A stretch of DNA of 64,000 nt, taken from the NCBI GenBank assembly GCA_027450205.1, contig DAIDJL010000004.1:75932-139931 (forward strand), written 5' to 3'. The position numbers and the translations under genes are program-made. A model generated the notes under the pieces. That model saw only the letters and a list, made by a program, of their open reading frames with translations. It was not told the origin of the DNA and ran no database searches. The stretch is from Candidatus Parcubacteria bacterium (GTDB taxonomy: Bacteria > Patescibacteriota > Minisyncoccia > UBA6257 > 2-01-FULL-56-20). This document shows positions 3 to 30,777 of the stretch, one piece after another (the stretch's first letter is position 1; the number at the start of each line of letters is the position of its first letter).

Positions 3-629
3 TTGACCGAGGCGCTCACGCACCGGTCGTACCTGAACGAATACCCTCGCTGGCCGCTTCCGCACAACGAGCGGCTGGAATATCTTGGCGACGCGGTCCT
101 CGAACTTCTCGTTTCCGAGGAGCTTTTTAAGAAATTTCCGTCGGAGCCGGAGGGGCAGCTTACCGTCTTCCGCGCGGCGCTCGTGAACTATCAGATATTG
201 GCAAAAGTGGCCGAGCGGATCGGCATGCAGAAATTCATCCTGATGTCGCGCGGCGAAAAGAAGGACACCGGCAAGGCGCGGGAGGTCATTCTGGCGAACG
301 CGATGGAAGCGCTGATCGGCGCGATCTATCTGGATCAGGGAATAGAAAAAATGCGGCCATTCGTCCATCAGTTCGTCATGGCCAATCTGGACGAGGTATT
401 GAAGAACAAGACGTATCGCGATGCCAAGAGTGAGCTGCAGGAAGTGATCCAGGAAAAATTGAAGCTCACGCCGACGTATCGGACGATCGAAGAGACGGGC
501 CCGGCGCACAAGCGCGTCTTTACCATGGGCGTCTATTATGGCGACAAATTGATCGCAAACGGCAGTGGTCCGTCAAAACAGGAAGCGGAGCTCGAGGCAG
601 CGAAGAACGCGCTCAAGAAACATAAGTAG
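3..629 (+). CDS. rnc: Ribonuclease III (5' end truncated by window edge)
   Basis: ERLEYLGDAVLEL RNase III signature, C-terminal dsRBD-like tail (GSGPSKQEAELEAAKNAL); ORF open to window start. Confidence 0.85.
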   Translation: MTEALTHRSYLNEYPRWPLPHNERLEYLGDAVLELLVSEELFKKFPSEPEGQLTVFRAALVNYQILAKVAERIGMQKFILMSRGEKKDTGKAREVILANAMEALIGAIYLDQGIEKMRPFVHQFVMANLDEVLKNKTYRDAKSELQEVIQEKLKLTPTYRTIEETGPAHKRVFTMGVYYGDKLIANGSGPSKQEAELEAAKNALKKHK

Positions 630-3015: not shown

Positions 3016-3148
3016 ACGGTTTTGTTGCGGCTTACATTGTTGTGGACCCGGGGAGAATCGGACTCCCGCCTCAGCAATGCGAATGCCGCGTTATACCACT
3101 TAACTACGGGCCCAAAATTGGTCTCATAGTAAGCCGCAACAAAACCGT
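3016..3148. repeat. Perfect 20-bp inverted repeat (3016-3035 acggttttgttgcggcttac / 3129-3148 gtaagccgcaacaaaaccgt) bracketing the intact tRNA-Ala copy
   Basis: direct reading; arms are exact reverse complements. Confidence 0.85.
3041..3113 (-). tRNA. tRNA-Ala (anticodon CGC); G3:U70 identity pair, discriminator A, 7-nt D-loop; T-loop reads TCCGATT (C at position 55)
   Basis: manual cloverleaf fold of reverse complement GGGCCCGTAGTTAAGTGGTATAACGCGGCATTCGCATTGCTGAGGCGGGAGTCCGATTCTCCCCGGGTCCACA. Confidence 0.7.
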
Positions 3149-3712: not shown

Positions 3713-4396
3713 ATGGTTGTACAAAATTGGACGGATGTGGTGGTGGGTTCGCTTCAGAACCTCTGGTGGGGAGTTGTCAATTATCTGCCGAACCTGATCG
3801 GGGCACTTGTGGTGCTGATCATCGGCCTGATCGTGGCGGCGGGATTGGCGGCACTCGTGGAGAAGATCCTTGAAGCGTTCCGGCTGGATGTGTTCCTGGA
3901 GAAGATCGGGCTGAAGCCGATCTTTGAGCGCGCCGGGGTCAAGCTGCGCGCGGCGTACTTCTTCGGCAAGCTCGTGTACTGGTTCGTCATCGTTGCGTTC
4001 CTCGTGGCGATCACGGACAGTCTGCAGCTCTATGCGTTGTCGGTGTTCCTCGGGTCGGTGCTTAACTACTTGCCGAACGTGATTGCGGCGGTGCTCATCA
4101 TGCTTGCGGCGTTCATCGTGGCGCACTTCCTGCGCAAGCTCGTGACGGCGTCGGTGATGAGCGCGAAGCTTCACTCGGGACCGTTTCTCGGCATCGTCAC
4201 ATATTGGGCGATCGCCGTGTTCGGCGTTCTGACCGCGCTCGCGCAGTTGAACATCGCGACGGAGATCATTCAGACGATCGTCACCGGATTCATCGCGATG
4301 CTCGCGCTCGCCGGCGGCCTGGCCTTTGGCCTTGGCGGCAAGGACTATGCGAATCATCTGCTGAACAAGCTGAAAGATCGCACCGAGAATCATTAA
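3713..4396 (+). CDS. Membrane protein with repeated 'conserved TM helix' motifs (MscS N-terminal-like)
   Basis: two NYLPN(L/V)I..(V/L)..L repeats, 5-6 predicted TM helices. Confidence 0.5.
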   Translation: MVVQNWTDVVVGSLQNLWWGVVNYLPNLIGALVVLIIGLIVAAGLAALVEKILEAFRLDVFLEKIGLKPIFERAGVKLRAAYFFGKLVYWFVIVAFLVAITDSLQLYALSVFLGSVLNYLPNVIAAVLIMLAAFIVAHFLRKLVTASVMSAKLHSGPFLGIVTYWAIAVFGVLTALAQLNIATEIIQTIVTGFIAMLALAGGLAFGLGGKDYANHLLNKLKDRTENH

Positions 4397-4402
4397 GCAA
4401 AA

Positions 4403-4468
4403 AGTCCCTCTCTTTGAACGTAAATGCCACCGAGGGCGGTGAGCGTTCAAAAAGAGAGGGGCTTTTTG
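4403..4468. terminator. Bidirectional hairpin terminator between convergent genes
   Basis: agtccctctctttgaacg ... cgttcaaaaagagaggggct stem with inner ccaccg/cggtgg hairpin, followed by TTTTTGTTT. Confidence 0.6.
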
Positions 4469-4502
4469 TTTAGCCTTGTCATGTGTAGGATCGCCCGCAA
4501 AA

Positions 4503-5303
4503 TTAAAGGCGGACAAGTCTGAATTTGACGTCAGTTCCAAACCACTTCATCGATAATATTTTCGTCGCGGCCGTAAGGTCGGTGACGAGAAATTCGCGGC
4601 GCTTGTTCTTGCCCAATCTCTTTACTATTTTCGGATGCCGCCCGAGATAATCCGCAAGTTTTGCCGAGATAATTTCATCTTGAGAAATTACTTTGATATC
4701 CGGCCCGCATATTTCCTTTATCTGTTTTTTTAAGATAGGATAGTGCGTGCACCCCAAGATCAATGCATCGATATTTTTTCTCGATAGCGGCTGCAGATAC
4801 GAGTGCAATATCGGATCGGCGAACTCAATAGCGTTGCTTTCGATGAGCGGCACGAGCAGGGGAGCGGCTTGCTGGAAGATCGACACATCCGGGCGAATTT
4901 TTTTGAGTTCTCTTATATATGCGCGCGAGTCGACCGTTCCTTGTGTCGCAAGAACGCCGACTCGCTTTATTTTATGATCTTTTAATGCCGCCTCGGCCGT
5001 CGGAATAATGATTCCCAAAACTCTGCGTTTTGGATAGTGTCTCGGAAGATATTCTTGCTGTACTTTCCGAAGCGCCTCCGCGGATGCGGTATTGCAGGCG
5101 ACGATGATCAATTCGCAATCGTGAGCGAATAAATAATCCACCGCTTCTTTCAAAAATTTGTAGACCGTCTCGTGAGAGCGATTACCGTATGGCACCCGCT
5201 GGGTATCGCCAAGATACACATAATCATACTGCGGCAATTCTTTGACGAGCGCCTTTGTGACGAACAGCCCGCCCAGTCCAGAATCAAAAATCCCTATCTT
5301 CAT
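4503..5303 (-). CDS. murI: Glutamate racemase
   Basis: IGIFDSGLGGLFV ... VACNTASA ... LGCTHYP motifs. Confidence 0.9.
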   Translation of the reverse strand: MKIGIFDSGLGGLFVTKALVKELPQYDYVYLGDTQRVPYGNRSHETVYKFLKEAVDYLFAHDCELIIVACNTASAEALRKVQQEYLPRHYPKRRVLGIIIPTAEAALKDHKIKRVGVLATQGTVDSRAYIRELKKIRPDVSIFQQAAPLLVPLIESNAIEFADPILHSYLQPLSRKNIDALILGCTHYPILKKQIKEICGPDIKVISQDEIISAKLADYLGRHPKIVKRLGKNKRREFLVTDLTAATKILSMKWFGTDVKFRLVRL

Positions 5304-5345
5304 GTTGTTTATACTATAGCGAAGTAATCAATGGTGAGGAAGGCT

Positions 5346-5486
5346 GCCCGCATGAGCTTTGAAGGAGTTCGCGGAGGTGATGCCGGCTTGGTCGCTCATT
5401 CTTATGAGCGCGGCATCGCCGAGCGCACAGGCTGGCGCGCGCCGCAGGAGCGCGCGAACAGCCGGTCATTCAAAGCTCATGCGGGC
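5346..5486. repeat. GC-rich structured element, copy 1 (perfect 18-bp outer stem 5346-5363 / 5469-5486, nested inner helices); 43 nt upstream of murI start on the minus strand
   Basis: direct reading; homologous to 7372-7522 in inverted orientation. Confidence 0.7.
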
Positions 5487-5500
5487 AGAGTCCGTCATCC

Positions 5501-5529
5501 TTGACCTTTCGCGTCCATTTTGTATAATG
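5501..5529 (+). promoter_or_regulatory. Sigma70-type promoter TTGACC-17-TATAAT; the -10 box ends 6 nt before the rpsP ATG (leaderless transcript predicted)
   Basis: consensus hexamers with 17-nt spacer. Confidence 0.6.
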
Positions 5530-5535
5530 GAACCC

Positions 5536-5913
5536 ATGTTGGCCATTAAATTACAACGCATCGGAAAGAAGCATCAGCCGAGCTATCGCGTGGTTGTTGC
5601 GGAAAAACGCTCAAAGATGGCGGCTCCGCCGGTGGAGGATCTTGGTTCGTATGATCCGCGCACCAAGGCGACGACCGTCAATAAGGAGCGCGTTTTGCAC
5701 TGGGTAAAGATGGGGGCGCAGCCGACCGTCACTGCGCATAATCTTTTAATAAAAGGCGGGGCGATCACCGGAGCACCTCGTGCGGTAAAAATGCCGAAGG
5801 CGGTTGCCAAGCCGATAGCGGAGGAAAAAGCAGGGGCGCCTGCAGCGGAAGGGGCGGTTGTCGCGAAGGAAGTGTCCGTGGCAGAAGCAGCTCCGGAAGC
5901 CGCTGCGGGATAG
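5536..5913 (+). CDS. rpsP: 30S ribosomal protein S16 with Ala/Lys-rich C-terminal extension
   Basis: MLAIKLQRIGKKHQPSYRVVVAEKRSK ... GSYDP; start set at second ATG downstream of the -10 box (ORF track begins 5359). Confidence 0.85.
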   Translation: MLAIKLQRIGKKHQPSYRVVVAEKRSKMAAPPVEDLGSYDPRTKATTVNKERVLHWVKMGAQPTVTAHNLLIKGGAITGAPRAVKMPKAVAKPIAEEKAGAPAAEGAVVAKEVSVAEAAPEAAAG

Positions 5914-5935
5914 TTAACCGCGCCGCCGGCATCGT

Positions 5936-5964
5936 TTGACATATAACTTAATATACCGTATAAT
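5936..5964 (+). promoter_or_regulatory. Sigma70-type promoter TTGACA-17-TATAAT upstream of khpA
   Basis: consensus hexamers. Confidence 0.55.
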
Positions 5965-6039
5965 TCTATCATTCAATACTGTTTTCATGGCACGGTCATC
6001 GAAATGTAACGAAAAGGTCGCAAGATACACAGAACTTCA

Positions 6040-6354
6040 ATGACGAATTTATCTTCAGCAGACCAGGAATTTCTCGAGTATTTGGTAAAATCCCTCGTGG
6101 ATCATCCGGATGATGTGAAGGTCGACCGCAAGGTCGACGAGATGGGCGTATTGCTCTCGCTCCACGTGAACGCCCAGGATATGGGGCAGGTCGTCGGCCG
6201 ACAGGGTGCGACGGCAAAGGCTATCCGCTCGCTTTTAAGGATCGTCGGCGTCAAGAACAACGCCCGCGTGAACCTTAAGATCGAAGAGCCGGAAGGCGTT
6301 GCCCGCGCGCCGCGCGCGGATCGGCCGGTAATGCCGGAAGAGGGAACTGCATAA
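6040..6354 (+). CDS. khpA: KH-domain RNA-binding protein (KhpA/YlqC-like)
   Basis: DHPDDVKVD ... VGRQGATAKAIRSLLR (GxxG KH core); positioned after rpsP as in many bacteria. Confidence 0.8.
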   Translation: MTNLSSADQEFLEYLVKSLVDHPDDVKVDRKVDEMGVLLSLHVNAQDMGQVVGRQGATAKAIRSLLRIVGVKNNARVNLKIEEPEGVARAPRADRPVMPEEGTA

Positions 6355-6367
6355 TCTATTTTCCCTG

Positions 6368-6398
6368 AAAGCCGCCCGTCATCGGGCGGCTTTTGGTT
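6368..6398 (+). terminator. Rho-independent terminator
   Basis: gccgcccg-tcat-cgggcggc + TTTTGGTTT. Confidence 0.75.
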
Positions 6399-6463
6399 TG
6401 CTTGCTGATAAAGATAACTTTTGATACGATAGTGGACAGTAACTATCTTACCCAGAAAGGTAT

Positions 6464-6724
6464 TTGGTTCACATGTGCCTTATCAAGCAGAGCTTGGATC
6501 AAATCAATATCCTTGGCGTTCCGCTAATGGGACGTATTATTCTGGAGACACACACTCCGGAAACGAAGAAAGATCCCGCGTTGCGCCAGGAGATCAAGGA
6601 CACGGTATTGGGCGGACGCAATGACATGGCTCTTCACCTCGCTGGCTGCGATAAGTGCCAGGCAGAGATCGCGCGACGGCGTCAGATTCCTCGGGATGCT
6701 ATGCTTTCTCTGACAATTGCCTGA
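6464..6724 (+). CDS. Small hypothetical protein with H-x3-C-x2-C (zf-HC2/anti-sigma-like) motif
   Basis: HLAGCDKCQAEIARRR; no other recognisable domain. Confidence 0.4.
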   Translation: MVHMCLIKQSLDQINILGVPLMGRIILETHTPETKKDPALRQEIKDTVLGGRNDMALHLAGCDKCQAEIARRRQIPRDAMLSLTIA

Positions 6725-6744
6725 CCCCAAACAGGCACACGCAT

Positions 6745-6788
6745 TATGGGCAATCCGCATCCACGGGTTGCCCATAAATTTATTTATG
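6745..6788 (+). terminator. Rho-independent terminator (9-bp stem tatgggcaa/ttgcccata) followed by AATTTATTTATG
   Basis: direct reading. Confidence 0.6.
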
Positions 6789-6805
6789 CTATTATTACAA
6801 CCGTT

Positions 6806-7369
6806 ATGGCACTCGCATATACCGACTTAACCAAAGGAGTTTTGTTCATTATGGACGGCGCGCCGTACGAGGTCATCGAGACCCATTTCTTGCGCATGCA
6901 GCAGCGCAAGGCCGTCGTGCAGACCCGCATCCGCAACCTCATCACGGGCAAGCTTTTGGACCGCAATTTTCAGGCGAGCGATTCGTTCGAAGAGGCGGAG
7001 ATCGAGCGCAAGCACGCGATCTTCATCTATGAGAGCAAAGGACAATACTGGTTCCACGAAGAGAACAACCCGAAGGCGCGTTTCGCGCTCGAGGCAGACG
7101 TTCTCGGAGAACAAGGCCGCTTCCTCAAGCCGAACATCCGCGTGCAGACGATGGTGTTCAATGAAAAAGTGATCCAGGTGGAGATTCCGGTCAAAATGGA
7201 ATTCAAAGTGGTGGAAGCGCCGCCGTCGCTCAAGGGCAACACCGCGCAGGGCGGCAACAAGGTGGTGACGATCGAAGGAGGCGCAAAGATCTCCGCGCCG
7301 CTCTTCATCAACGAGGGCGACATGATCCGCGTGAACACGCAGACGGGGGATTACGTGGAACGGGTGTAG
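6806..7369 (+). CDS. efp: Elongation factor P
   Basis: YTDLTKGVLFIMDGAPYEVIETHF ... KAVVQTRIRNLITGK; start set at MALAYTDL (ORF track 6746 runs through the upstream terminator). Confidence 0.9.
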   Translation: MALAYTDLTKGVLFIMDGAPYEVIETHFLRMQQRKAVVQTRIRNLITGKLLDRNFQASDSFEEAEIERKHAIFIYESKGQYWFHEENNPKARFALEADVLGEQGRFLKPNIRVQTMVFNEKVIQVEIPVKMEFKVVEAPPSLKGNTAQGGNKVVTIEGGAKISAPLFINEGDMIRVNTQTGDYVERV

Positions 7370-7371
7370 GA

Positions 7372-7522
7372 GCTCTTTTCAAATCATTCTCTCGGAACCG
7401 GCGGTCCGCGCGCTCCTGCGGCGCGCGTCCGCCTGTGCGCTCGGCAATCCTGCGCTCATCGGAATGAGCGACCAAGCCAGGATTGCCTCCGCGAACTTCC
7501 TCGAGGATAATTTGAAAAGAGC
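7372..7522. repeat. GC-rich structured element, copy 2 (13-bp outer stem 7372-7384 / 7510-7522); inverted relative to copy 1; begins 3 nt after the efp stop
   Basis: reverse complement aligns to 5346-5486 with compensatory substitutions in three helices. Confidence 0.7.
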
Positions 7523-7789
7523 CGGGATTAAAAAAGGAAAAGGCGCGACATAATGCCGCGCCCCCTCTAACGAGATCCACGCAATAGAGGATTAGCTAAC
7601 GTTTCTCTATCGCAAACTTGATGCTGACCAGGGCCGTTGTCACAGCTAGTCCAGTTGCAAAACTGCAAAGTCTTACATTGTGGGAAATAGCAAAGTGGAT
7701 AGCGCAGGCGCTATTTATTCCCGCCAGCACTGCAAAGAGCGTTGATCGCATAAAACACCTCGCAAGAGTTATAGATTATAAACATAGAA

Positions 7790-8983: not shown

Positions 8984-10210
8984 ATGCGCCAATCTCAATT
9001 GTTCTCAAAGACCGAGCGGAACGCTCCGAAGGACGAGGCGACCATAAACGCCCAGCTTCTGGCGCGGGCAGGGTTTGTTTCAAAGCTGATGGCCGGAGCA
9101 TATAGTTATCTTCCGCTCGGGCTGCGCGTGCTTAATAACATAGAGAACATCGTCCGCGAGGAAATGAATGCCGTCGGCGGCCAGGAAATTTTAATGCCGA
9201 TCATCCATCCAAAGAGCATCTGGGCGACGACCGGCGGCTGGGATAAGATCGATGTGCTGTTCAAGATAAAAAGCCGTACGGAAAAAGAGTACGCGCTCGG
9301 GCAGAGCGAGGAAGAGGTCGTTACGCCGCTCGTCATGAAGTATGTGAACACGTATAAGGACCTGCCGAGGGCGGTGTATCAGATCAACTGGAAGTTCCGC
9401 GACGAGCTGCGTTCCAAATCGGGATTGCTTCGCGGCGTGGAATTTTTAATGAAGGACATGTACAGCTTCCATGAAACACAGGCAGATTTTGAGCGGTTTT
9501 ACGCGGAGGTAAAGAAGGCATATTTCCGCGTGTATGAACGGATGGGGTTGGTGGCCAAGGCCACGGAGGCGTCCGGCGGTGCGTTCACGCAAAAAGTGTC
9601 ATACGAATTCATGGTGCTCACCGACGCGGGCGAGGATGATATTTTATATTGCGATGTGTGCGATTTTTGCGTGAACGCGGAGATCGCCAAAGAGAAGGAG
9701 GGCGGGCAGTGTACGCGCTGCGGCAAGGGAACGCTGGCGAAAGCACGGGCATCGGAGGTGGGGAATGTGTTCGATCTCGGACAGAAATTCGCAAAGGATT
9801 TTGATGTGACGTATACCGACAAAGAAGGCAAGAAGCAGCATCCGATCATGGGATGTTTCGGCATCGGCATTTCCCGTGCAATGGGCGTCGTCGTGGAAAA
9901 ATTCCATGATGAAAAAGGGATTATCTGGCCGGAGGCAGTCGCGCCGTTCAGGGTGCATTTGCTTGCGCTCGGGGGAGCCGATGGCGCGCATATTTACGAT
10001 TCTTTACAAAAAGCGGGCGTCCAAGTACTCTATGACGATAGGGAAATGTCCGCGGGCGAGAAGTTCGCGGAAGCCGATTTGATCGGTATTCCCTGGAGGA
10101 TCGTGGTCAGCCCGAAGGTCGGGGACGGCAAGGTGGAGGTCAAGCGCCGAACCGAAAAGGAGCCGCGCATCATGGACGTAAAGGAAGCGTTGGAACTCAT
10201 TAAAAAATAA
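8984..10210 (+). CDS. proS: Proline--tRNA ligase (short form without editing domain)
   Basis: class II aaRS motifs, anticodon-binding C-terminus, 'GIPWRIVVSPK'; start set at MRQSQLF. Confidence 0.9.
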   Translation: MRQSQLFSKTERNAPKDEATINAQLLARAGFVSKLMAGAYSYLPLGLRVLNNIENIVREEMNAVGGQEILMPIIHPKSIWATTGGWDKIDVLFKIKSRTEKEYALGQSEEEVVTPLVMKYVNTYKDLPRAVYQINWKFRDELRSKSGLLRGVEFLMKDMYSFHETQADFERFYAEVKKAYFRVYERMGLVAKATEASGGAFTQKVSYEFMVLTDAGEDDILYCDVCDFCVNAEIAKEKEGGQCTRCGKGTLAKARASEVGNVFDLGQKFAKDFDVTYTDKEGKKQHPIMGCFGIGISRAMGVVVEKFHDEKGIIWPEAVAPFRVHLLALGGADGAHIYDSLQKAGVQVLYDDREMSAGEKFAEADLIGIPWRIVVSPKVGDGKVEVKRRTEKEPRIMDVKEALELIKK

Positions 10211-10241: not shown

Positions 10242-11285
10242 ATGGCACTTTTCGACAATGTATTCAAAGATATCGGCATCGACCTTGGTACGGCGAACTC
10301 GCTTATCTATTTAAAAAATAAAGGCATCGTGGTGAATGAGCCGTCTGTTGCGGCGATCAACACGAAGACGAACCATGTGCTCGCGGTGGGCGACGAGGCA
10401 AAGAAAATGCTGGGCCGCGTACCGCCGCACATCAACGTGGTGCGCCCGCTTGTGAACGGCGTCATTTCCGATTTTGAAATGACCGAAGAGATGCTGCGGC
10501 ATCTGCTGAGTCGTCCGAAAGCAAGTCCGATCATGTCGTATCGCCGCGCGATCCTTGCGATCCCGAACAATCTTACCGAAGTGGAACGAAAATCCGTGGA
10601 AGATGCGGCGCTGAACGCCGGCTGCTCGAAGGTATACCTCGTGGAGTCGCCGACGGCGGCCGCGCTCGGCGCCGGGCTGCCGATCATGACGCCGTCGGCG
10701 AGCATGATCATCGACATCGGCGGCGGCACCACGGACATTGCAGTGATCTCGCTCGGCGGCACCGTCGTCTCTCGTACGCTCAAGGTGGCAGGGGACAAGT
10801 TCAATGAGGACATCATCCGCTACGTGCGTGATGAGTTTCATCTTGCGATCGGCGAGCCGACGGCGGAGTTCGCCAAGATCGCGGTCGGTTCCGCGGTTCC
10901 GCTCGACGAGCGCATAGAGGTGCCGATCCGCGGACGGGACTATACGAGCGGCCTGCCGCGCGAAGTGGGTATGAAGAACAATCATGTGCGCACGGCGATC
11001 TCAAAATCACTCCGTTCGATCATTGATTCCGTTCATGAGGTCATCGAGGAAACTCCGCCGGAGCTGGCGGGCGACGTCCTGCGCGGCGGCATTGTGCTGT
11101 GCGGCGGCGGCGCACTCCTGCGCGGCCTGGATGAGCTGCTCGAAAAGGAGACCGGCGTCACCGTGACCGTGGCCGACGATCCGCTGACGTGCGTGGTGCG
11201 CGGGCTGGGGCAGATGGTGGATGACTTCGATGCGCACCGCGAGCTGCTCGATAATCCGCTGAAGCCGCTCTATATCAATCTATAA
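10242..11285 (+). CDS. mreB: Rod shape-determining protein MreB
   Basis: IGIDLGTANSLIY ... DIGGGTTDIAV actin-fold motifs. Confidence 0.9.
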   Translation: MALFDNVFKDIGIDLGTANSLIYLKNKGIVVNEPSVAAINTKTNHVLAVGDEAKKMLGRVPPHINVVRPLVNGVISDFEMTEEMLRHLLSRPKASPIMSYRRAILAIPNNLTEVERKSVEDAALNAGCSKVYLVESPTAAALGAGLPIMTPSASMIIDIGGGTTDIAVISLGGTVVSRTLKVAGDKFNEDIIRYVRDEFHLAIGEPTAEFAKIAVGSAVPLDERIEVPIRGRDYTSGLPREVGMKNNHVRTAISKSLRSIIDSVHEVIEETPPELAGDVLRGGIVLCGGGALLRGLDELLEKETGVTVTVADDPLTCVVRGLGQMVDDFDAHRELLDNPLKPLYINL

Positions 11286-18326: not shown

Positions 18327-20732
18327 ATGGCGACCTTTTATTTATTTCTAGGGATCGTACTCGGCGCGGTCATCGTGGCCGTGGCGTTCTTCATCATTCG
18401 TGCATTTGCCCGCCGCCGCATTTTCGACTCCCTGCAGACATCTCTTTTTTTGATAAGGATCCCGAAGGCGGCGCCGGCGGACCGGTCGCCCGCCGGCGGC
18501 GAGGGCAGCGACTTCAAGACGGAGCTTGCGCACTTCGAGCAGCTGCTTGGCGGCCTGTCTGCCATCAAAAAACCGATCGTGTTCGAGGTGGCGGTGCCGC
18601 ATATCGGCGAAGAGATCCATTTTTATATCGGTGTCCCGAAGCTTTCCGCCGAAGTGGCGATGAAGCAGGTCCAGGGATTATGGAACGGTGCGAGCGTTGA
18701 GCTCGTACAGGACGATTTCAATATCTTCAACGCGAACGGCGCGACCGTTGCGGCGTATGTGGCGCAGAAAGAGCATTACGCGCTGCCGGTGCGGACGTAC
18801 GCGGAGCTTGGCGTGGATTCATTCGAGTCTATCGTGGGTGCGTTCGCGAAGATCAGCGAGATCGGCGAGGGCGCATCGCTCCAGCTCGTGGTGCGCGCGG
18901 CATCGGGCGGCTACAAGAAGGAGATCTATCACTATATTGAGGCATTAAAGAAGGGCGAGCCGATCAAGAAAGTTCTGGGTAAGAGCATTGTCTCCGGCGT
19001 CAGCGCGTCCGACGTTGCGGACGTCTTCAATCCAAAAACAAAAGAGGAGCAAGCGGAGGAAAAAGCAAAGCGCGTGGTGGATGACGAGGCGGTGAAAGCG
19101 CTGCAACTCAAAGTGGCGAAACCGCTCTTTGAGGTGAACTTGCGGCTGGTGGCGTCCGCCGGGTCGCCATTCCAGGCAAACGATATCCTGGACGGGCTTA
19201 CGGCGGGGTTCAGCCAGTTCGGCAGCCCGATGCGCAACGATTTTCGGATCGTAAAGCCGCGCAATCCGAAAAATATCGTGAATGACTTCATCTATCGCAT
19301 GTTCGATGACGGAGAAAAAATGCTGCTGTCGAGCGAAGAGATCGCGAGCATCTGGCATCTGCCGATTTCGTCCACCGAGACGCCGCGTGTGAAGTGGCTT
19401 AAAGCAAAGGAAGCCCCGCCGCCGGACAACCTTCCGAACAAGGGCCTTCTTATCGGCGATGCGACGTTTCGCGGGGCGGCAAAGCCGGTGTACATCACGG
19501 ATGACGACCGGCGCCGGCATATATATGTGATCGGACAGACCGGCACCGGAAAATCCACTTTGCTCGGCAATATGATCATTGAGGATATCCAGTCCGGCAA
19601 GGGCGTGGCGATCATCGATCCGCACGGCGATTTGGTGGAGAACGCGCTCGGCTTCGTGCCGAAGGAGCGGCTGGACGACGTCATCTACTTCAATCCCGGC
19701 GACCTCGAGCGCCCGCTCGGGCTCAATATGATCGATTTCAATCCGGCGCGGCCGGAAGAGAAGACGTTCATCGTAAACGAGATGCAGAGCATCTTCAACA
19801 AGCTGTTTTCACAGGAAACGATGGGTCCGATGTTCGAGCAGTACATGCGTAATGCGCTGTTGCTCATGATGGAGGACGCCGCGAATGAACCCGCCACACT
19901 CGTGGAGGTGCCGCGCATCTTTACCGACGTGGAGTATCGCAAGCGCAAGCTCGCGCGTATCCATAATCCCGTCGTCATAGACTTCTGGGAGAAGGAGGCG
20001 GTGAAGGCCGGCGGCGAAGCATCGCTCGCGAACATGACGCCGTACATCACGTCAAAATTCAACAATTTCATCTCCAACGATTATATGCGGCCGATCATCG
20101 GCCAGCCCAGGTCCGCGTTCAACTTCCGCGACGTGATGGATAATAAAAAAATATTGCTTATCAACTTGTCGAAGGGAAAGATAGGGGACATCAATGCCGG
20201 TTTGCTCGGTATGGTCTTCACGGGGAAGATCCTCATGGCGGCACTTTCGCGCGTGGACATTGCGGACGCGGACAAGCGCACCGACTTCAATTTATATATA
20301 GATGAGTTCCAAAACTTCACCACCGATTCCATCGCGACGATCCTTTCTGAAGCGCGCAAGTACCGCCTGAATCTCACGATGGCGCACCAGTTTATCGCCC
20401 AGCTGGAGGAAAAGATCAAAGACGCCGTTTTCGGCAACGTGGGTTCCGAGCTTGTGTTCCGCGTCGGCGTGACCGATGCCGAATTTCTCGTGAAGCAGTT
20501 CGAGCCCGCATTCAACCAGAACGACCTCGTGAACATCGACAACCTCAACGCATACGCGAAGATCCTGATCAACGGGCAGACATCGAAGCCGTTCAACCTC
20601 AAGATCGGCACCACATCATGGGGCGGCGGCAATAAAGAGCTTGCGGAGAAATTAAAGCAATATTCGCGGATGAAGTATGGCCAGGACCGCCAGGCGATCG
20701 AGGATGATATTTTCAGGAGGCTGCGTTCGTAG
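18327..20732 (+). CDS. Fused membrane-anchored N-domain + TrwB/TraD/VirD4-type (FtsK-HerA superfamily) P-loop ATPase
   Basis: N-terminal TM helix; GQTGTGKST Walker A, IIDPHGD, VIYFNPGDLERPLGLNMI, LYIDEFQNF Walker B, LTMAHQFIAQL; N-terminal half homologous to 55031-56353, C-terminal half to 56381-58111. Confidence 0.7.
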   Translation: MATFYLFLGIVLGAVIVAVAFFIIRAFARRRIFDSLQTSLFLIRIPKAAPADRSPAGGEGSDFKTELAHFEQLLGGLSAIKKPIVFEVAVPHIGEEIHFYIGVPKLSAEVAMKQVQGLWNGASVELVQDDFNIFNANGATVAAYVAQKEHYALPVRTYAELGVDSFESIVGAFAKISEIGEGASLQLVVRAASGGYKKEIYHYIEALKKGEPIKKVLGKSIVSGVSASDVADVFNPKTKEEQAEEKAKRVVDDEAVKALQLKVAKPLFEVNLRLVASAGSPFQANDILDGLTAGFSQFGSPMRNDFRIVKPRNPKNIVNDFIYRMFDDGEKMLLSSEEIASIWHLPISSTETPRVKWLKAKEAPPPDNLPNKGLLIGDATFRGAAKPVYITDDDRRRHIYVIGQTGTGKSTLLGNMIIEDIQSGKGVAIIDPHGDLVENALGFVPKERLDDVIYFNPGDLERPLGLNMIDFNPARPEEKTFIVNEMQSIFNKLFSQETMGPMFEQYMRNALLLMMEDAANEPATLVEVPRIFTDVEYRKRKLARIHNPVVIDFWEKEAVKAGGEASLANMTPYITSKFNNFISNDYMRPIIGQPRSAFNFRDVMDNKKILLINLSKGKIGDINAGLLGMVFTGKILMAALSRVDIADADKRTDFNLYIDEFQNFTTDSIATILSEARKYRLNLTMAHQFIAQLEEKIKDAVFGNVGSELVFRVGVTDAEFLVKQFEPAFNQNDLVNIDNLNAYAKILINGQTSKPFNLKIGTTSWGGGNKELAEKLKQYSRMKYGQDRQAIEDDIFRRLRS

Positions 20733-24378: not shown

Positions 24379-24443
24379 TTGTGGTAGTGGATAAAAAAAT
24401 CGGCGGACGCATCATGATAGATGCGACCGCCGGGCCTTTCCTG

Positions 24444-24773
24444 CTATGTATGCCGTCTTTTGACCGCCTTTGGCATAAAGAGGGTGTGGAGATCGACGTC
24501 GAGCGCCACCGCGATGCGGATAAGTTCGCCAAGATCGGGATTTCCGTTTCCATCTTCGATGTCCCGAAGCGCATTGAGGGTAATGCCTATCCGGCGCGCG
24601 AACTCTTTTTGCGTAGGGGATGATCTCTCATCGCCGCCAAGGTGCCTTCGTCCATACCAGACGTTTTGTGCGAGTATATCGCTTGGTCCGGGGAGTGATC
24701 GCGGGCGGATGCGCGGAAGAGGTTCCGGTTCTGGTGCGTGGATCTCGGGTTTTTCGGGCGGGTGGTGTGGCAA
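24444..24773 (-). CDS. XRE-family helix-turn-helix transcriptional regulator
   Basis: SPTQKEFARRIGITLNALRDIEDGNGNPDLGELIRIAVALDVDL. Confidence 0.65.
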   Translation of the reverse strand: MPHHPPEKPEIHAPEPEPLPRIRPRSLPGPSDILAQNVWYGRRHLGGDERSSPTQKEFARRIGITLNALRDIEDGNGNPDLGELIRIAVALDVDLHTLFMPKAVKRRHT

Positions 24774-24841
24774 GATTTTTGACTCCGATCAGTGAGATAA
24801 AAAGCAGACCTTATGATATATCATTGATCCGGTATGTCAAT

Positions 24842-24875
24842 AAAAAAAGCCGGCGCTGGGGGATGGCGCCGGACT
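24842..24875 (-). terminator. Hairpin terminator (gccggcgc/gcgccggc) followed by T7 on the minus strand
   Basis: direct reading. Confidence 0.5.
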
Positions 24876-24897
24876 TTGGTGGGTGAGAGATCGGCGA

Positions 24898-25266
24898 TCA
24901 TTCGCCTTCGACAAATACAATGTGGATCCCCGCGCGAAGGAGATCCTCCAAAATGACCGCGGCGCCGCATGTCATCTCTTTTCCGTTCAGTCGGAACGAC
25001 AGATCGTAGCCGAATGTCCTGGCGAGCCGATAGAGCGTCTGGACGGTGACATGCTTTTTTGTGTGCATGCCTCGTTCGATGTGAACGAGGGTTTTCAAAG
25101 AGACCCTTGACCATCGCGACAGCCAAAGATTGCCAAACCCCCTGTTGCGCAGCACGTTGTTGAGTGTACCCGCCAATTCATGGCGCAGATAGCACTGTTT
25201 GTCGACACTGACATCCTTTGTTCTTTCGGGAAAGGTTCCTGCAATTTCGATCGCTACATCGGACAT
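24898..25266 (-). CDS. XRE-family helix-turn-helix transcriptional regulator
   Basis: LSRWSRVSLKTLVHIERGMHTKKHVTVQTLYRLARTFGYDLSF; start set at MSDVAIE (ORF track extends to 25344 into the rnpB promoter). Confidence 0.65.
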   Translation of the reverse strand: MSDVAIEIAGTFPERTKDVSVDKQCYLRHELAGTLNNVLRNRGFGNLWLSRWSRVSLKTLVHIERGMHTKKHVTVQTLYRLARTFGYDLSFRLNGKEMTCGAAVILEDLLRAGIHIVFVEGE

Positions 25267-25337
25267 TTTTTCTCCCTTCAGAATACGCCACCGTGGCGTT
25301 ACTATGCCGCTTTTTATCGTACAAATAAGCCCCACGA

Positions 25338-25366
25338 TTGTCAATAAATTTGTGATGTGCTACAAT
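25338..25366 (+). promoter_or_regulatory. Sigma70-type promoter TTGTCA-17-TACAAT for rnpB
   Basis: consensus hexamers ~7 nt upstream of predicted P1 5' strand. Confidence 0.6.
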
Positions 25367-25372
25367 ATTTCT

Positions 25373-25835
25373 GCTGGTCATTCAGACGGTCGCTGCGCCA
25401 TGCGATGCCCTTAAAAGCAGAGTTCGCGCAGAGGAAAGTCCGGACACCCTCCGGTGTCGCCATAACCGGCGCCGGATAAAAAGGTAGCGGCTAACGGCCG
25501 CCGTTTGCAAGAATAGAGGTGCGAGCAGTGACGCCCGCGGACGCATGTCCGCTTGATAGGCCGGAAACGGCCTGGGGGACCCCATCCCGAGCTAGAAGGT
25601 CCAATTCCGCCATAGGGACAAAAAAGCGGAAGTGAAACGGCAAAATCCTTACTGGGTGCAAGGCCGTGCTCTCGTGCGATCCGCAAGGAAAATACGGGAG
25701 AGTGCCGCAGCGGTTCCGCGCGCAAGCGCGGCACCCGAGCCCGCGAGCGATCAAGGGCACAGATAAATGACCGTCCATCGGTGAGCGCTTTTACCGGCGC
25801 CGCCGGTCGACAGAATCCGGCTTATGGATTGCCAG
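25373..25835 (+). ncRNA. rnpB: RNase P RNA (bacterial type)
   Basis: GAGGAAAGTCCGG (P4 5' strand), GGAAGTGAAACGG, AGATAAATGACCGTCCA and ACAGAATCCGGCTTA (P4 3' strand) universal elements; P1/P2 pairing between 25373-25399 and 25821-25835. Confidence 0.8.
25818..25835 (+). repeat. DR0: native 3' end of rnpB (GCTTATGGATTGCCAGCC), prototype of the islet direct repeat
   Basis: exact/near-exact copies at 26224, 28204, 29629, 31421. Confidence 0.85.
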
Positions 25836-25870
25836 CCTTAGACGTCCCAGCAATGGGGCGTTTTTGATTT

Positions 25871-25898
25871 ATTTGACAGTTCTTATAGATATGCTATA
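25871..25898 (+). promoter_or_regulatory. Sigma70-type promoter TTGACA-16-TATAAT (islet A)
   Basis: consensus hexamers just after the rnpB terminator. Confidence 0.6.
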
Positions 25899-26223
25899 AT
25901 TCTCAACAGTTCCTAAGACGGCTACGGTCTAAAGAACTGCTTTACGAGCGCTTCAGTGGCCGTTCCAAAAGACGTTTCTCGGTCTGCGGGATGTAATACA
26001 GGGATACTTCGGAAGCATGACGACTTCTTGGTGCCCGAGGGAATCTGTCGAAGTCAATCTGCGAGTGGTAGGAAAACCATCTCGCAGATGGCATCATATA
26101 TCTCATACATAAAAGGGCGCACCAGCACTATCTGGAGCGCCCTTTATCTTTTGTATATATTTCGAGCGGGGACACTGAAATCATTAAACCTGATTAAATA
26201 GCCGTTCCCCTTAAGTGAATCCG

Positions 26224-26241
26224 GCTTACGGATTGCCAGCC
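26224..26241 (+). repeat. DR1: GCTTACGGATTGCCAGCC (1 mismatch) with upstream ATCCG extension; followed by terminator hairpin
   Basis: direct reading. Confidence 0.85.
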
Positions 26242-26271
26242 TGAAACGTCCCAGTAATGGGGCGTTTTTGT

Positions 26272-26300
26272 TTGACTAGCCTCCAATATTTTTCTATAGT
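26272..26300 (+). promoter_or_regulatory. Sigma70-type promoter TTGACT-17-TATAGT (islet B)
   Basis: consensus hexamers; SD AAGAGGTGAGG + ATG 26326 follow. Confidence 0.55.
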
Positions 26301-26325
26301 CTACGCAGCAGAAAAGAGGTGAGGT

Positions 26326-26799
26326 ATGATTGGAGTTCAACCGAAAATTGATAAACCATACGCGGAAATTGACCGACGGGGCGGTCGTGCTGCTATTGTC
26401 GAGCCAAGCGGCAAGCTCTGGATTGTGGACATTGCTGACGGGAACCCGCTTCAGGACGGCGAAGGTGTCCATATGGGAATGTTCCTACAACCGGGGATGA
26501 CGCGCCTTGAGTTCAAGGAAGCTGGCGAATTCCCATTTGTAGCACTCATCAATTACATACGGCAGGCCTATTTTCAGGAGAGCTGCCTTATGATGGTCCT
26601 GTTGGCCATTGACCCTCATCTTGGTAGCGGGCTTCGTACGGAGGCGCTCACTATGGCAACAGCGTTTATGAAAACACCCGGTACCAAGGACTGGATTGTC
26701 CAGCGATTGGCCGAGATGCTCCCGAATCTGGACGCCGATGTCGCAGGGTTGCCCCATTGCCAATTGAAGACGCTCCTTCGGGGAGTGCAGCAAAACTGA
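26326..26799 (+). CDS. Hypothetical protein (157 aa), islet B cargo
   Basis: strong SD, own promoter, ends before conserved terminator module. Confidence 0.55.
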   Translation: MIGVQPKIDKPYAEIDRRGGRAAIVEPSGKLWIVDIADGNPLQDGEGVHMGMFLQPGMTRLEFKEAGEFPFVALINYIRQAYFQESCLMMVLLAIDPHLGSGLRTEALTMATAFMKTPGTKDWIVQRLAEMLPNLDADVAGLPHCQLKTLLRGVQQN

Positions 26800-26804
26800 C
26801 GCTA

Positions 26805-26886
26805 GGGGCGCGCCAGCAATAACCGGTGCGCCCTTTCTCTTTGCCCAACACTCAATAACCCCGTCTAAAAAGCGGGGTTTTTAGTT
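26805..26886 (+). terminator. Conserved double-terminator module M1 (GGGGCGCGCC-AGCAATAA-CCGGTGCGCCC TTTCTCTTTGCCCA ... CCCCG-N-CGGGG TTTTTAG)
   Basis: near-identical modules at 28844 and 30778; variants at 26118 and 29584. Confidence 0.7.
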
Positions 26887-26923
26887 GGGGATGTGCGGGA
26901 AAGCTGCAGGTGGGGGCTACCTT

Positions 26924-27565
26924 TTACACGCCGCTTACTTTTGGTTTTAGCTTTTTATATAAGCTAATAGTGTTCACAAAAAGGTTGATTTTCTTATTTC
27001 TGTTTAAAACATAGACGTAGGCATTGCCCTCAACGAAGCCGCAAAAGGCGGGAGCAATTGGGGTTTCAATAATCTCAAGCTTTGCGGTTCCATGCTCTAA
27101 GGCCGTTGCAATGATTTCCAGGCTATTAGCGCATGCGATTACACTAGAAAGAATATCGGCATTTTCCCCATAGAAGGATTCCCACGCCTTGATTCCTTGA
27201 CTGAACTCTGGCGACTTGGAGGCTTCCTCTGCGTTAAAATTCCGCATCTCTAGGTTTGGCAATGAACCATGCTGTCTGCTATTGATTATAAGGCGAAAAC
27301 CATCGCTATCGGCTAAAAATTTTTCGAAGTGTCTTAGCTCTTCTATGGCTACAGTTTCTCTCGTAAGGGCTGTCTGTTTTCTCTGTTCGGATATTTGAGC
27401 GAGGGCGTAGATTGCGATAGGAATCAATGAAATCTGGGCGGCGGCTGACAGCCCGGCAATCCACAGAGTTACGCTACTGTTAAGCGCCACAAAGGTTACG
27501 ATGCCACATATTATCCCTACGCAGATTCCTACGGCAACCGCTCTAATCGTACTCGTCACATTCAT
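26924..27565 (-). CDS. Hypothetical membrane-anchored protein (213 aa)
   Basis: two N-terminal TM helices then soluble domain. Confidence 0.5.
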   Translation of the reverse strand: MNVTSTIRAVAVGICVGIICGIVTFVALNSSVTLWIAGLSAAAQISLIPIAIYALAQISEQRKQTALTRETVAIEELRHFEKFLADSDGFRLIINSRQHGSLPNLEMRNFNAEEASKSPEFSQGIKAWESFYGENADILSSVIACANSLEIIATALEHGTAKLEIIETPIAPAFCGFVEGNAYVYVLNRNKKINLFVNTISLYKKLKPKVSGV

Positions 27566-27635
27566 GCTTCAATCCTACGCCCATGTTAGAGTTCGTCAAA
27601 CTTGCGGATTTTTGCCTAAGGCGTAAGCTTTTGGC

Positions 27636-28013
27636 ATGAACGACAAGAAGGAGGAAGAGCAATACCTACAAGAAGATAAGGACCTTTTGGAGGAGCTGGA
27701 AGCAATCGGACCAGCCAGCACGGGTACTGCAGCAACAATGCAGGCATACAAATTCGCACGACTACAAATCAAAGCATCACTGCGTAGCCGTAAGACCTCT
27801 AATGACCTCATCCGGTCAAACGAAAAGTTCTCTATCGCGCTCATTGCATTCGCATTTGCTCAGCTCATACTTGGCCTTTTTCAATTCCTTTTTGATGCAA
27901 GCACGTCCACCCATCAAATACTGGGATTTTTCTACGCGATTATAGCGGCAGGTATGGTGGTTTATGTATTTATATTGGGGGATTTTGATTTAGAAGCTGC
28001 TTTGTTATACTGA
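27636..28013 (+). CDS. Hypothetical protein with acidic N-terminus and two C-terminal TM helices (125 aa)
   Basis: ORF + hydrophobicity. Confidence 0.45.
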   Translation: MNDKKEEEQYLQEDKDLLEELEAIGPASTGTAATMQAYKFARLQIKASLRSRKTSNDLIRSNEKFSIALIAFAFAQLILGLFQFLFDASTSTHQILGFFYAIIAAGMVVYVFILGDFDLEAALLY

Positions 28014-28203
28014 ACCTAGTTGTTGTAACGGATTTCCAGTGGGCGGAGTTTGCCCATAAGCTCTACGGAGGAAATCGGAACATCGATACTGGAATGAAGG
28101 CAAGCAGCCCGGAGCTAGCTGGTAGGGTAACGGCCTACCTGGGCGATGATGGGTAAAAATGGGGCGATACCGCGTGCACACGGTCGCCCCCTTTAATTTT
28201 TTA

Positions 28204-28221
28204 GCTTATGGATTGCCAGCC
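28204..28221 (+). repeat. DR2: GCTTATGGATTGCCAGCC exact
   Basis: direct reading; followed by terminator hairpin acagcttc/gagctgt + T5. Confidence 0.85.
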
Positions 28222-28323
28222 GAGAACAGCTTCAGCAATGGAGCTGTTTTTGTTATAAAAACGTGCTAAATTAAATCCAGCAGATTCTCTGCTAGAGCCA
28301 CAATCTGTGGTAGGAGAATATCC

Positions 28324-28830
28324 ATGGAAAGAACGGAACCAGTTATGGTCGTGCCCCCCGTGTATTTACTTCCATCAATCGGACTTTGGCGTTGGTGCAA
28401 ACTTGGGGATGTCTGTGACCTAGTGCCAAACGTCGCAATGCTGGCTGGGAATACCTACGCACCTTCACTTGAGGAACTAGTGAGAGATTTCGCCGCACTG
28501 GTCCGACACAACGTAGCTCCCGAAGGTAGCCCTGCTGAAAAACCACCCGGCAAAAAAATGTTTCGTTATTCGTTTGGAGGAGATTTGCGTGCAACTGAGG
28601 TGTTGAGTCTTGGGCAAACCAACACCGACCCGCCGTACGTTCAGTTCAAACTTGATGACCCATTGAGTCGAGATATGTTTATTCCAGAGGGCTGGGCGCG
28701 AGATGTACTCCGCGCAATTCATGGTGGAGCAGTTGCGGCAGTTCAATGGGACAATCGACTTGTTGGATTTCCCGAGGATAAACAAAAAAGACTCATACCC
28801 CTCGGAAGGGCGAGAACGACGAAGGAGTAA
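28324..28830 (+). CDS. Hypothetical protein (168 aa), islet C cargo
   Basis: AGGAG SD; ends before module M2. Confidence 0.5.
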   Translation: MERTEPVMVVPPVYLLPSIGLWRWCKLGDVCDLVPNVAMLAGNTYAPSLEELVRDFAALVRHNVAPEGSPAEKPPGKKMFRYSFGGDLRATEVLSLGQTNTDPPYVQFKLDDPLSRDMFIPEGWARDVLRAIHGGAVAAVQWDNRLVGFPEDKQKRLIPLGRARTTKE

Positions 28831-28843
28831 TATGAGAACGCAA

Positions 28844-28917
28844 GGGGCGCACCAGCAACACCGGTGCGCCCTTTCTCTTTGCCCAGTCCTCAATCCTCCG
28901 GTGATGGGGGATTTTTG
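28844..28917 (+). terminator. Conserved double-terminator module M2
   Basis: GGGGCGCACCAGCAACACCGGTGCGCCCTTTCTCTTTGCCCAGTCCTCAATCC ... GGGGGATTTTTG. Confidence 0.7.
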
Positions 28918-28918
28918 A

Positions 28919-28947
28919 TTGACTGAGCTGCTCAATAATGATATATT
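28919..28947 (+). promoter_or_regulatory. Sigma70-type promoter TTGACT-17-TATATT
   Basis: immediately after M2. Confidence 0.5.
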
Positions 28948-28976
28948 ACCGATAGTTCCAAAACGCAGGAGGCGTT

Positions 28977-29249
28977 ATGGCTATTGGACCGCACGATGTT
29001 CGTAAATTGACTTCGGATGAGATAATTCACGTCGAGCGTCTGGAGAAGGAAATTGACGCATGTCTTCGGGCGCAGAACGGCAGAAGGGGAAAGGAAGCGT
29101 CCTTCTCATCTAAAGAAATTGTAAATCAGACAGTTTTGGATGAGCTCGCGTCCCGTTACAGGGCCGCAGGATGGAAAGAAGTGAATCCTACGCTGGGCAC
29201 TGTGGGTTTTGCAATTCGATTTGCGAACCCCGCGGACTATCTCGACTAA
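28977..29249 (+). CDS. Hypothetical protein (90 aa)
   Basis: AGGAGG SD. Confidence 0.5.
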   Translation: MAIGPHDVRKLTSDEIIHVERLEKEIDACLRAQNGRRGKEASFSSKEIVNQTVLDELASRYRAAGWKEVNPTLGTVGFAIRFANPADYLD

Positions 29250-29261
29250 AAAAGGAGGCGC

Positions 29262-29555
29262 ATGGAAGAAAAGGGATGCATGTATCGTCGCGTAGAAATA
29301 TCGTCAGAGCGCGGGGCGATATTCAAAAAAGTAGATTTCCACGGCACCCTCGCCGAATACAAGACGAACTTTGCATTACCGCACCTTGCACTAGCGGCGT
29401 GGAGTATTCGAAAAGCGGGGTACATATTGGTCTATCGTGCCGTGGAAGAATTTCCGTTTCTGCATGGCATCTTCGTACCGGATAGAGTTTCCCGCGAAGT
29501 AGTACTAAATCGGGTACGAGCAAGCTGGGGTGCGACGAGCCAATTACAGGACTGA
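29262..29555 (+). CDS. Hypothetical protein (97 aa)
   Basis: AAGGAGG SD. Confidence 0.5.
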   Translation: MEEKGCMYRRVEISSERGAIFKKVDFHGTLAEYKTNFALPHLALAAWSIRKAGYILVYRAVEEFPFLHGIFVPDRVSREVVLNRVRASWGATSQLQD

Positions 29556-29628
29556 TTCAGAATTGAGATGGGCACATAACAAGGGCGCACCAAGCAACAT
29601 GGCGCGCTCTTTTTTTGCCCCAGCTCCG

Positions 29629-29646
29629 GCTTATGGATTGCCAGCC
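29629..29646 (+). repeat. DR3: GCTTATGGATTGCCAGCC exact, with upstream CTCCG extension
   Basis: direct reading. Confidence 0.85.
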
Positions 29647-29745
29647 GAGAACAGCTTCAGAAATGAGGCTGTTTTTGTTTATCACTGTTTGATTTCTTAT
29701 AACTATCATTCTAGAATCCAGACAGTAATCCCACGAAAGGAATTT

Positions 29746-30072: not shown

Positions 30073-30098
30073 CATATCACATATTATAAATGTATAAT
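30069..30098 (+). promoter_or_regulatory. Sigma70-type promoter TTGACA-18-TATAAT
   Basis: consensus hexamers. Confidence 0.5.
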
Positions 30099-30151
30099 AT
30101 AACCAGCTTTTAACGTCGAGCGAATATTCTGACTCCTGGAGGGTCGACACC

Positions 30152-30763: not shown

Positions 30764-30777
30764 CATTCTTTCATACA

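Follow-up and report, generated by a model that had tools for sequence, protein, structure and literature searches.

Several families of small bacterial repeats offer a point of comparison for the element addressed here. MITEs (miniature inverted-repeat transposable elements), together with the ERIC, Correia/NEMIS, RUP and BOX repeats (PMC3184786, PMC10969869), are 100-170 bp in size, intergenic, non-coding and strongly folded. Their presence varies in close relatives, a position immediately past a stop codon or between promoters is common, and once transcribed they could serve as ribonuclease III (RNase III) or mRNA-stability elements. The same can be said of a GC-rich structured element that occurs twice, in inverted orientation, in a stretch of 64,000 nucleotides (the window) from a Candidatus Parcubacteria bacterium (GTDB lineage Bacteria; Patescibacteriota; Minisyncoccia; UBA6257; 2-01-FULL-56-20; GenBank assembly GCA_027450205.1, contig DAIDJL010000004.1, positions 75,932 to 139,931, forward strand). 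Copy 1 (5346-5486, sense strand +) lies in the gap between murI and rpsP, and copy 2 (7372-7522, sense strand -) starts at the third base past the efp stop codon. Together with copies found elsewhere, they probably represent a new family in the Patescibacteria, a small non-coding, dispersed, mobile-type structured repeat composed of a core and of palindromic arms specific to each locus.

The known systems differ from this element as much as they resemble it. MITE-type repeats have conserved terminal inverted repeats and target duplications, whereas here it is the interior that is conserved, the arms are unrelated, and neither conserved terminal inverted repeats nor a target-site duplication is found. 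The IS200/IS605-derived PATEs and the REP/REPIN elements, which belong to Y1 HUH transposases (PMC3119063, PMC3597680, PMC3333891), likewise lack terminal repeats and duplications and have hairpins near both ends, and they are recognised by structure, through a single-strand chemistry that prefers hairpin or lagging-strand DNA. As in the PATEs, one hairpin arm (P2) of the present core starts 9 nt from the 5' end and another (P3) ends 2 nt from the 3' end. However, there is no fixed target tetranucleotide, as the left flanks differ, and no GTAG/CGTC head, no nearby TnpA or RAYT gene was found, and the known elements are not embedded in long locus-specific palindromes. REP and REPIN sequences are palindromes of 20-40 nt in high copy number. 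The core is instead a 99-nt three-way junction starting GTTCGCGG, with 2 copies in 64 kb; no Y1 domain was found in the approximately 60 open reading frames (ORFs) of the window, and no full-length partner insertion sequence with TnpA lies within it.

Insertion inside a hairpin has a precedent in the palindrome-targeting insertion sequences IS1397, ISKpn1, IS621 and ISPpu9, which enter REP sequences within the palindrome so that the target halves flank them as inverted repeats (PMC1525189). These are full insertion sequences with a transposase and one conserved REP target, whereas here a 99-nt insert is found in differing palindromes. Quasipalindrome template switching, a documented way in which stems arise, lengthen and become homogeneous (PMC8794818, PMC13100816, PMC8604942), is similar in its perfect arms and mirrored multi-base changes, and in an inverted copy of the end of efp seen in one relative, but it is a mutational process and leaves the spread of a precisely bounded 99-nt core unexplained. 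The mitochondrial GC clusters and double-hairpin elements of fungi and yeast (PMC4478555) are also short, GC-rich, geneless hairpins dispersed in intergenic DNA by an unknown mechanism; they differ in being organellar, much shorter, and palindromes in themselves with no locus-specific arms. Retron msr-msd loci share the flanking inverted repeats, but no reverse-transcriptase gene stands beside any copy. Unlike integron attC sites, the element has the ends GTTCGCG ... CCGCCGG with no R''/R' core sites (RYYYAAC ... GTTRRRY), and no integrase was found.

The Conserved Core and Its Copies

A repeat search of the window returned an inverted repeat of 115 nt (5352-5466 / 7397-7511, 83% complementary), which agrees with the coordinates and inverted orientation of the two copies in the original prediction. 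Around each copy there are also local flanking inverted repeats, with a spacing between the arms of exactly 99 nt. A 36-nt core pattern matches exactly 2 times in the 64 kb, against 0 expected from shuffles, and a covariance model run over it with filters off recovers just the two copies (copy 1 core at 146.9 bits, E = 1e-30; copy 2 core at 137.5 bits). Both fold better than dinucleotide shuffles, as had been claimed, with minimum free energies of -92.1 and -83.1 kcal/mol (z = -8.5 and -7.5 for copies 1 and 2), and the opposite strands are nearly as stable (z = -7.7 and -7.3). The predicted fold of both copies is an outer stem with two hairpins, and inspection of the sequence finds all four of the helices originally quoted. 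The comparison with Rfam that had been proposed gave no family: with Rfam 15 at gathering thresholds the window yields only the 16S rRNA and two tRNAs, and at E <= 10 over 5200-7700 there is no meaningful match on either copy.

The conserved unit is the 99-nt core, or 101 nt with an invariant closing A-T pair. On either strand, whether as DNA or as RNA, it folds into a three-way junction composed of a long bulged hairpin (PJ-P2-P2b) and a second hairpin (P3-P3b). In copy 1 the core, as delimited by fold, covariance model and pair counts, spans 5367-5465 (+), with the closing pair at A5366-T5466. Helix PJ is formed by 5367-5368/5427-5428 and 5370-5372/5423-5425, and P2 by 5376-5385/5411-5420; then come the invariant 7-nt bulge GCTTGGT (5386-5392) and P2b (5393-5399/5404-5410), while the second hairpin consists of P3 (5430-5434/5459-5463) and P3b (5436-5442/5450-5456). 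The core of copy 2 (7398-7496, -), placed by the covariance model and the identity matrix, is also 99 nt, being 87% identical to that of copy 1 and 90% identical to its orthologue at locus L031. Hereafter c1 and c2 denote the two window copies, L0xx the loci fetched from metagenome contigs or relatives, and P01xx protein matches.

Searching outward from the two copies, as had been suggested, recovered the core at about seven independent loci on Patescibacteria (Paceibacteria-like) metagenome contigs, with the proposed helices kept by compensation. A pattern scan of metagenomes contributed L017 and L018, both true copies. The translated core also served as a protein query, meant to pick up ORFs spuriously called across the element; a word-index protein search gave P0121-P0123, an exhaustive representative search gave P0124-P0126 and P0128, and the contigs of such matches provided L021-L023 and L030-L034. 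The independent loci are c1; c2 with its orthologue L031-33, in the order efp / element / small ORF / mnmA; L017; L018, which is the same as L022 in a second sample and orthologous to L023 (dnaG / SET-domain gene / element / rpoD); L021, where divIC lies downstream; L034, flanked by GH130 and MarR-like genes; and L030, the most diverged, with a core of 98 nt instead of 99. Regarding the hosts, the homologues of elongation factor P (EF-P) are named in their source as Candidatus Paceibacterota, and the RpoD beside L022 is Patescibacteria/Parcubacteria-like. The core of c1 is 94% identical to L017/L022 and only 87% to c2, so the window copies are not recent duplicates of each other. No core copy was found in the viral contigs, phage records and plasmid records searched, and a scan of a genome collection with a 20-base GC-rich core pattern gave only 9 chance matches, in high-GC genomes.

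Selection on the Core Structure

An ungapped MAFFT alignment of 7 sequences pairs in 98% of its cells, with both-sided change at 22 pairs. In a 10-sequence alignment fitted to the model (A10), in which several rows are orthologues, pairing holds in 97.3% of cells and drops to 25-48% once the partners are slid; both-sided change is seen at 29 of the 49 pairs, including 15 in the core helices, and none of 500 shuffles reaches the observed values. Individual helices illustrate the pattern. In L030, P3b has gone from CGCGCGC/GCGCGCG to AAAAUGC/GCAUUUU, fully compensated; P2b varies among copies from CGCUCAU to CAUUCAU; and the junction helix of L023 has CAC/GUG in place of CGC/GCG. The orthologues c2 and L031 are otherwise near-identical and differ almost only at five compensated P2 pairs. 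Even in L030, little or no variation is seen at the unpaired nucleotides (GGA, the bulge GCUUGGU, the loops and the junction A).

With 97% pairing, 15 both-sided changes of core pairs and invariant unpaired nucleotides, the core structure is under selection. The compensatory covariation first reported from two copies is thereby upheld for the core helices, but not for the outer stem and the locus-specific arms discussed below. The combination of covarying stems with an invariant bulge, loops and junction suggests recognition by a trans-acting factor. On the sense strand the core helices hold 3 G.U pairs and 3 A.C mismatches, and these equal counts point neither to one strand nor to RNA or DNA as the molecule under selection.

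It is hardly credible that the core instead encodes a small protein. The ORFs at 5331-5504 (+) and 7308-7580 (-) share a frame, and gene callers do call such ORFs in public records. However, at least three frames run through all four copies examined without a stop, as does a fourth through both window copies, which is expected in GC-rich DNA, while the ORFs called at different loci lie in different frames and strands. The differences between copies within the open frames are all non-synonymous and fall at compensated, stem-paired positions, on which ground coding was rejected. Known RNAs were considered as well. The motif CUGAUGAG in some copies recalls a hammerhead ribozyme, but it is paired in P2b, it is mutated in copy 1, and the Rfam ribozyme models are unmatched. 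Similarly, 5S rRNA, signal recognition particle RNA, 6S RNA and tRNA-like RNA were rejected, with no Rfam or ARAGORN match and an element that is not universal in relatives.

Locus-Specific Palindromic Arms

At every locus the core sits at the exact symmetry centre of a long near-perfect palindrome, whose arms abut it. The perfect arm lengths are 18 bp in c1, 13 in c2, 27 in L017, 25 in L018, 35 in L021, 25 in L034 and about 38 in L030. The left arm of copy 1 (5328-5366, +) is perfect over 18 bp at 5346-5363, with a 3-nt mismatch beside the core and 18 imperfect nucleotides at its distal end; the right arm (5466-5504, +) is perfect at 5469-5486, and its distal end overlaps the -35 box of rpsP. 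In copy 2 the efp-side arm (7372-7397, +) is perfect over its distal 13 bp (7372-7384) and imperfect proximally, with a tandem G.A/A.G mismatch, and the mnmA-side arm (7497-7522, +) is likewise perfect over its distal 13 bp (7510-7522).

The arm sequences are unrelated between loci. Over the first 15 arm positions, independent loci share 13-67% identity, and L017 and L022, the cores of which are 100% identical, share only 33%. What is copied is therefore the core, the arms being made, or found, on site. The same comparison argues against a shared "proximal P1" consensus carried by the element, and since arms are unrelated even beside identical cores, the outer stem was rejected as a compensatory helix. 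Within an orthologous pair the situation is different: L018 against L023 shows changes at about 7 of 26 arm positions, nearly all of them mirrored in the other arm, with one mismatch left in L023. Inside such a pair the arms are inherited, and they change at about the pace of intergenic DNA yet stay complementary. No second copy of the arms was found anywhere in the sequences examined, and a virus-derived, spacer-like origin was rejected after the arms of three loci gave nothing but one chance 18-mer match to viral sequence. The left flanks of the core (AAGGA, AGGAA, TGGAA, AAGTA, AAACA, AAACA and AGAA) have in common a final A and a purine bias.

Gene Context and Absence in Relatives

The neighbouring genes were correctly named in the original prediction, as glutamate racemase, ribosomal protein S16, the KH protein, EF-P and MnmA agree with the annotation. 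Relatives with EF-P proteins 89-95% identical keep the order mechanosensitive (MS) channel / rpsP / KH / efp / mnmA, and the element is absent from their orthologous sites and from approximately 200 kb of their DNA, as searched with blastn and the covariance model. L026 and L028 have efp and mnmA only 2-3 nt apart with no element, L024 has a minus-strand terminator-like hairpin directly past the efp stop, and L031 contains c2, with both c1 and murI missing at the rpsP site. Among the genomes compared, it is only in this one that murI (4503-5303) lies between the MS-channel gene and rpsP; in L010 the glutamate racemase gene is about 10 kb away, and there is none at the site in L031, L015, L026 and L028.

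Copy 1 lies exactly where the relocated murI segment meets the rpsP promoter. This promoter (TTGACC-16-TATAAT, 5501-5528, +) is conserved in relatives and stands between copy 1 and the rpsP ATG at 5536. As the ATG is 8 nt past the TATAAT box, the S16 mRNA is probably leaderless and copy 1 outside the transcript. On the other side of efp, a small hydrophobic ORF of 51 aa (7596-7751, -), convergent to efp and with no family match, lies between efp and mnmA; a similar ORF is present at the same place in L031-L033 and L015, and absent in L026 and L028. Its intrinsic terminator (7537-7567, -) ends 14 nt before copy 2, and this terminator and the convergent ORF thus separate copy 2 from mnmA.

A cis-regulatory leader, riboswitch or processing signal for murI and mnmA, as originally put forward, is on this evidence very improbable. 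It drew on the conserved structure and on the position of copy 1, whose end is 42 nt upstream of the murI start codon on the strand then chosen. However, the genes that adjoin the core are varied and unrelated (rpsP, rpoD, divIC, a MarR-like gene, an unknown gene, or a convergent efp), and orientation across loci is inconsistent, with no constant position before functionally related genes of the kind a riboswitch has. At the three loci between co-directional genes, it is not the chosen strand but the other one that faces the gene downstream. A terminator intervenes at copy 2 and the rpsP promoter at copy 1; at L017 and L018, promoter-like hexamers, identified by eye only, stand between the element and the gene. 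The relatives possess the same genes without the element, and murI is not at this position in them. The leader was accordingly abandoned, and the second option of the original prediction, a structured intergenic mobile repeat, is favoured by dispersal and by absence in relatives. It is this absence at orthologous sites, the varied genes, the rpsP promoter in between and the non-coding nature of the element that lead to a dispersed mobile-type repeat and not a leader.

A Possible Stable RNA or DNA Site

At all three loci between co-directional genes, the sense strand follows the gene direction. This agreement bears on two further explanations. In the first, several gene copies would encode a small and stable RNA acting in trans, whose core would be freed from a long double-stranded precursor stem by RNase III, as for rRNA; we consider it rather unlikely. 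Its attraction lies in the invariant unpaired nucleotides beside covarying stems, in the co-directional sense strand, in the RNase III encoded by the window, and in a tRNA-Ala of the same window that has the same architecture, with perfect 20-bp arms and 93 nt between them, kept in L012. But a promoter scan found no promoter associated with the element itself, copy 2 lies just downstream of a sense-strand terminator, and absence in close relatives means that this is not a housekeeping RNA. With G.U and A.C at 3 each and both strands folding almost equally, no strand is preferred either.

The second is a site acting at the DNA level as a cruciform or hairpin, used by an HUH/Y1 transposase (an IS200/IS605-derived PATE) or by a recombinase or invertase for which the arms would be inversion repeats. 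Such a site would account for the pair of subterminal hairpins and for the lack of both terminal inverted repeats and a target duplication, for the absence of strand asymmetry, for a purine-rich left flank that always ends in A, and for an orientation that, at the three informative loci, tracks the direction of the genes and so probably that of replication. Against this, the left flanks contain no fixed target tetranucleotide, TnpA, recombinase and invertase genes were not found in the window, and the arms have no common consensus that an invertase could recognise. As regards an inverton (an invertible promoter, with both orientations in a population), the element is oriented alike in L018 and L022, which are one locus in two samples, and likewise in c2 and L031-33. 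We regard the DNA site as quite unlikely.

Apparent Hairpin Growth and a Proposed Origin of the Repeat

The genomes compared contain other hairpins that are relevant to the arms. The bidirectional terminator of the MS-channel gene (window 4394-4472; L031 8215-8290; L015 8726-8799; L028 2490-2532) keeps its outer arms, AAAAAG..CCCC / GGGG..CTTTTT, in four genomes, and its apex bears a different extra palindromic insert in each, with perfect arms of 21-30 bp. On this comparison, the hairpin appears to grow from the inside. In L030 the element itself lies inside a bidirectional-terminator hairpin formed by the distal arms. L031 also has a hairpin that contains no core but is similar to the c2 arms and holds the c2 insertion point in its loop (local score 28 against 12.6 +/- 2.2 for shuffles), and as a link to those arms it is suggestive only.

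In L010, perfect 16-bp arms lie 102 nt apart (9785-9918) and enclose, upstream of efp, a promoter and the 3' fragment of a tRNA, and one arm is an inverted copy of a tRNA-like anticodon arm. Directly after efp in the same relative, whose EF-P is 95% identical, there is a rod-like hairpin of 173 nt (10569-10756; -90 kcal/mol). Its 34-nt arms show 88% complementarity, and in the far one the stop and last codons of efp recur as an inverted copy. The rod may be a diverged orthologue of copy 2, which is unproven: only short motifs are shared, and both MAFFT and the covariance model fail to relate the two.

In the window, the tRNA-Ala(CGC) gene (3042-3113, -) lies within a perfect 20-bp inverted repeat (3016-3035 / 3129-3148) and is nested in a split tRNA-Ala, whose 5' portion is at 3200-3183 and whose 3' portion, with encoded CCA, is at 3011-2964. 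The nested gene is orthologous in L012 (6700-6965), where the arms are only 9/20 identical and still 19/20 paired, and four other relatives have a plain tRNA-Ala at that site with no flanking arms. Judged from these cases, perfect inverted duplications of local sequence and apex-growing hairpins seem to be common in these genomes. A perfect 15-bp inverted repeat with a 68-nt spacer (9581-9678), within the coding sequence of prolyl-tRNA synthetase, may be a template-switch footprint.

For the dispersed mobile-type repeat, a course of events can be proposed. The 99-nt core would have been inserted at hairpin apexes, and fold-back (intrastrand) template switching in the course of replication would create the arms, lengthen them and keep them perfect, a process to which the hairpins described above are attributed as footprints. 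The result would be a very stable hairpin or cruciform of -83 to -92 kcal/mol. Were transcription to pass through it, the arms would offer RNase III a substrate and form an mRNA-end structure; the RNase III gene of the window (3-629, +; Pfam Ribonuclease_3 and dsrm) encodes the enzyme that would then cut the perfect duplex arms of 13-38 bp.

Several points weigh against this explanation. At E <= 1e-5, the scan of about 60 window ORFs gave no match to a transposase, integrase, HUH enzyme or reverse transcriptase. Terminal inverted repeats are not conserved between loci and no locus has a direct target-site duplication, as what follows the arms is a further stretch of inverted and not direct repeat; the element thus points to none of the known transposition chemistries. 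A true empty allele was not recovered, and the arms may have existed before the insertion, been made by it, or both. The invariant unpaired nucleotides would fit a trans-acting small RNA as well, and the 3/3 agreement of the sense strand, which hints at a function of one RNA strand or at replication-oriented insertion, lies outside what this explanation covers. Additionally, the sequences number about 10 in total, and several are orthologous, hence not independent.

A bolder proposal, which we hold only tentatively and would not expect to prevail, is a new class of mobile element that is the inverse of a MITE. A precisely bounded three-way-junction module of 99 nt would be copied into hairpin apexes, through some enzyme or through an RNA or single-stranded-DNA intermediate, and fold-back synthesis would build the perfect, locus-specific palindromes around it. 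Structured RNA genes would be packaged and nested in the same way, hence the arm-flanked tRNA-Ala within a split tRNA-Ala, and rearrangements such as the relocation of murI, with copy 1 at its junction, would be driven by it as well.

Other Features of the Window

Beyond the element, 37 nt are inserted close to the 5' end of the 16S rRNA gene (45189-46748). The 17 kb downstream of this gene gave no 23S or 5S rRNA, so the rRNA genes appear unlinked. An inverted repeat of 24 bp, 96% complementary (44918-44984), lies upstream of the 16S gene, and a feature at 48980-49061 is listed together with this region. About 11 consecutive ORFs have no Pfam match (24400-32650), and two genes encode VirD4/TraG/HerA-like ATPases (18327-20732 and 56381-58111). 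This block and these two genes could be mobile or surface-related DNA.

Implications for the Patescibacteria

Bacteria of the Candidate Phyla Radiation have tiny genomes, and to our knowledge almost no mobile DNA or non-coding RNA families have been described in them. The element presents unusually clean covariation, and a conserved interior within perfect arms specific to each locus is an architecture undescribed for bacterial repeats. There are practical consequences for annotation, since gene callers have made spurious ORFs over the element (for example P0121-P0128), and long perfect palindromes could hinder assembly. Copy 1, at the murI relocation junction, is a rearrangement marker. Finally, the family would provide a handle on palindrome formation and template switching in these organisms, and possibly on a new mobility mechanism.

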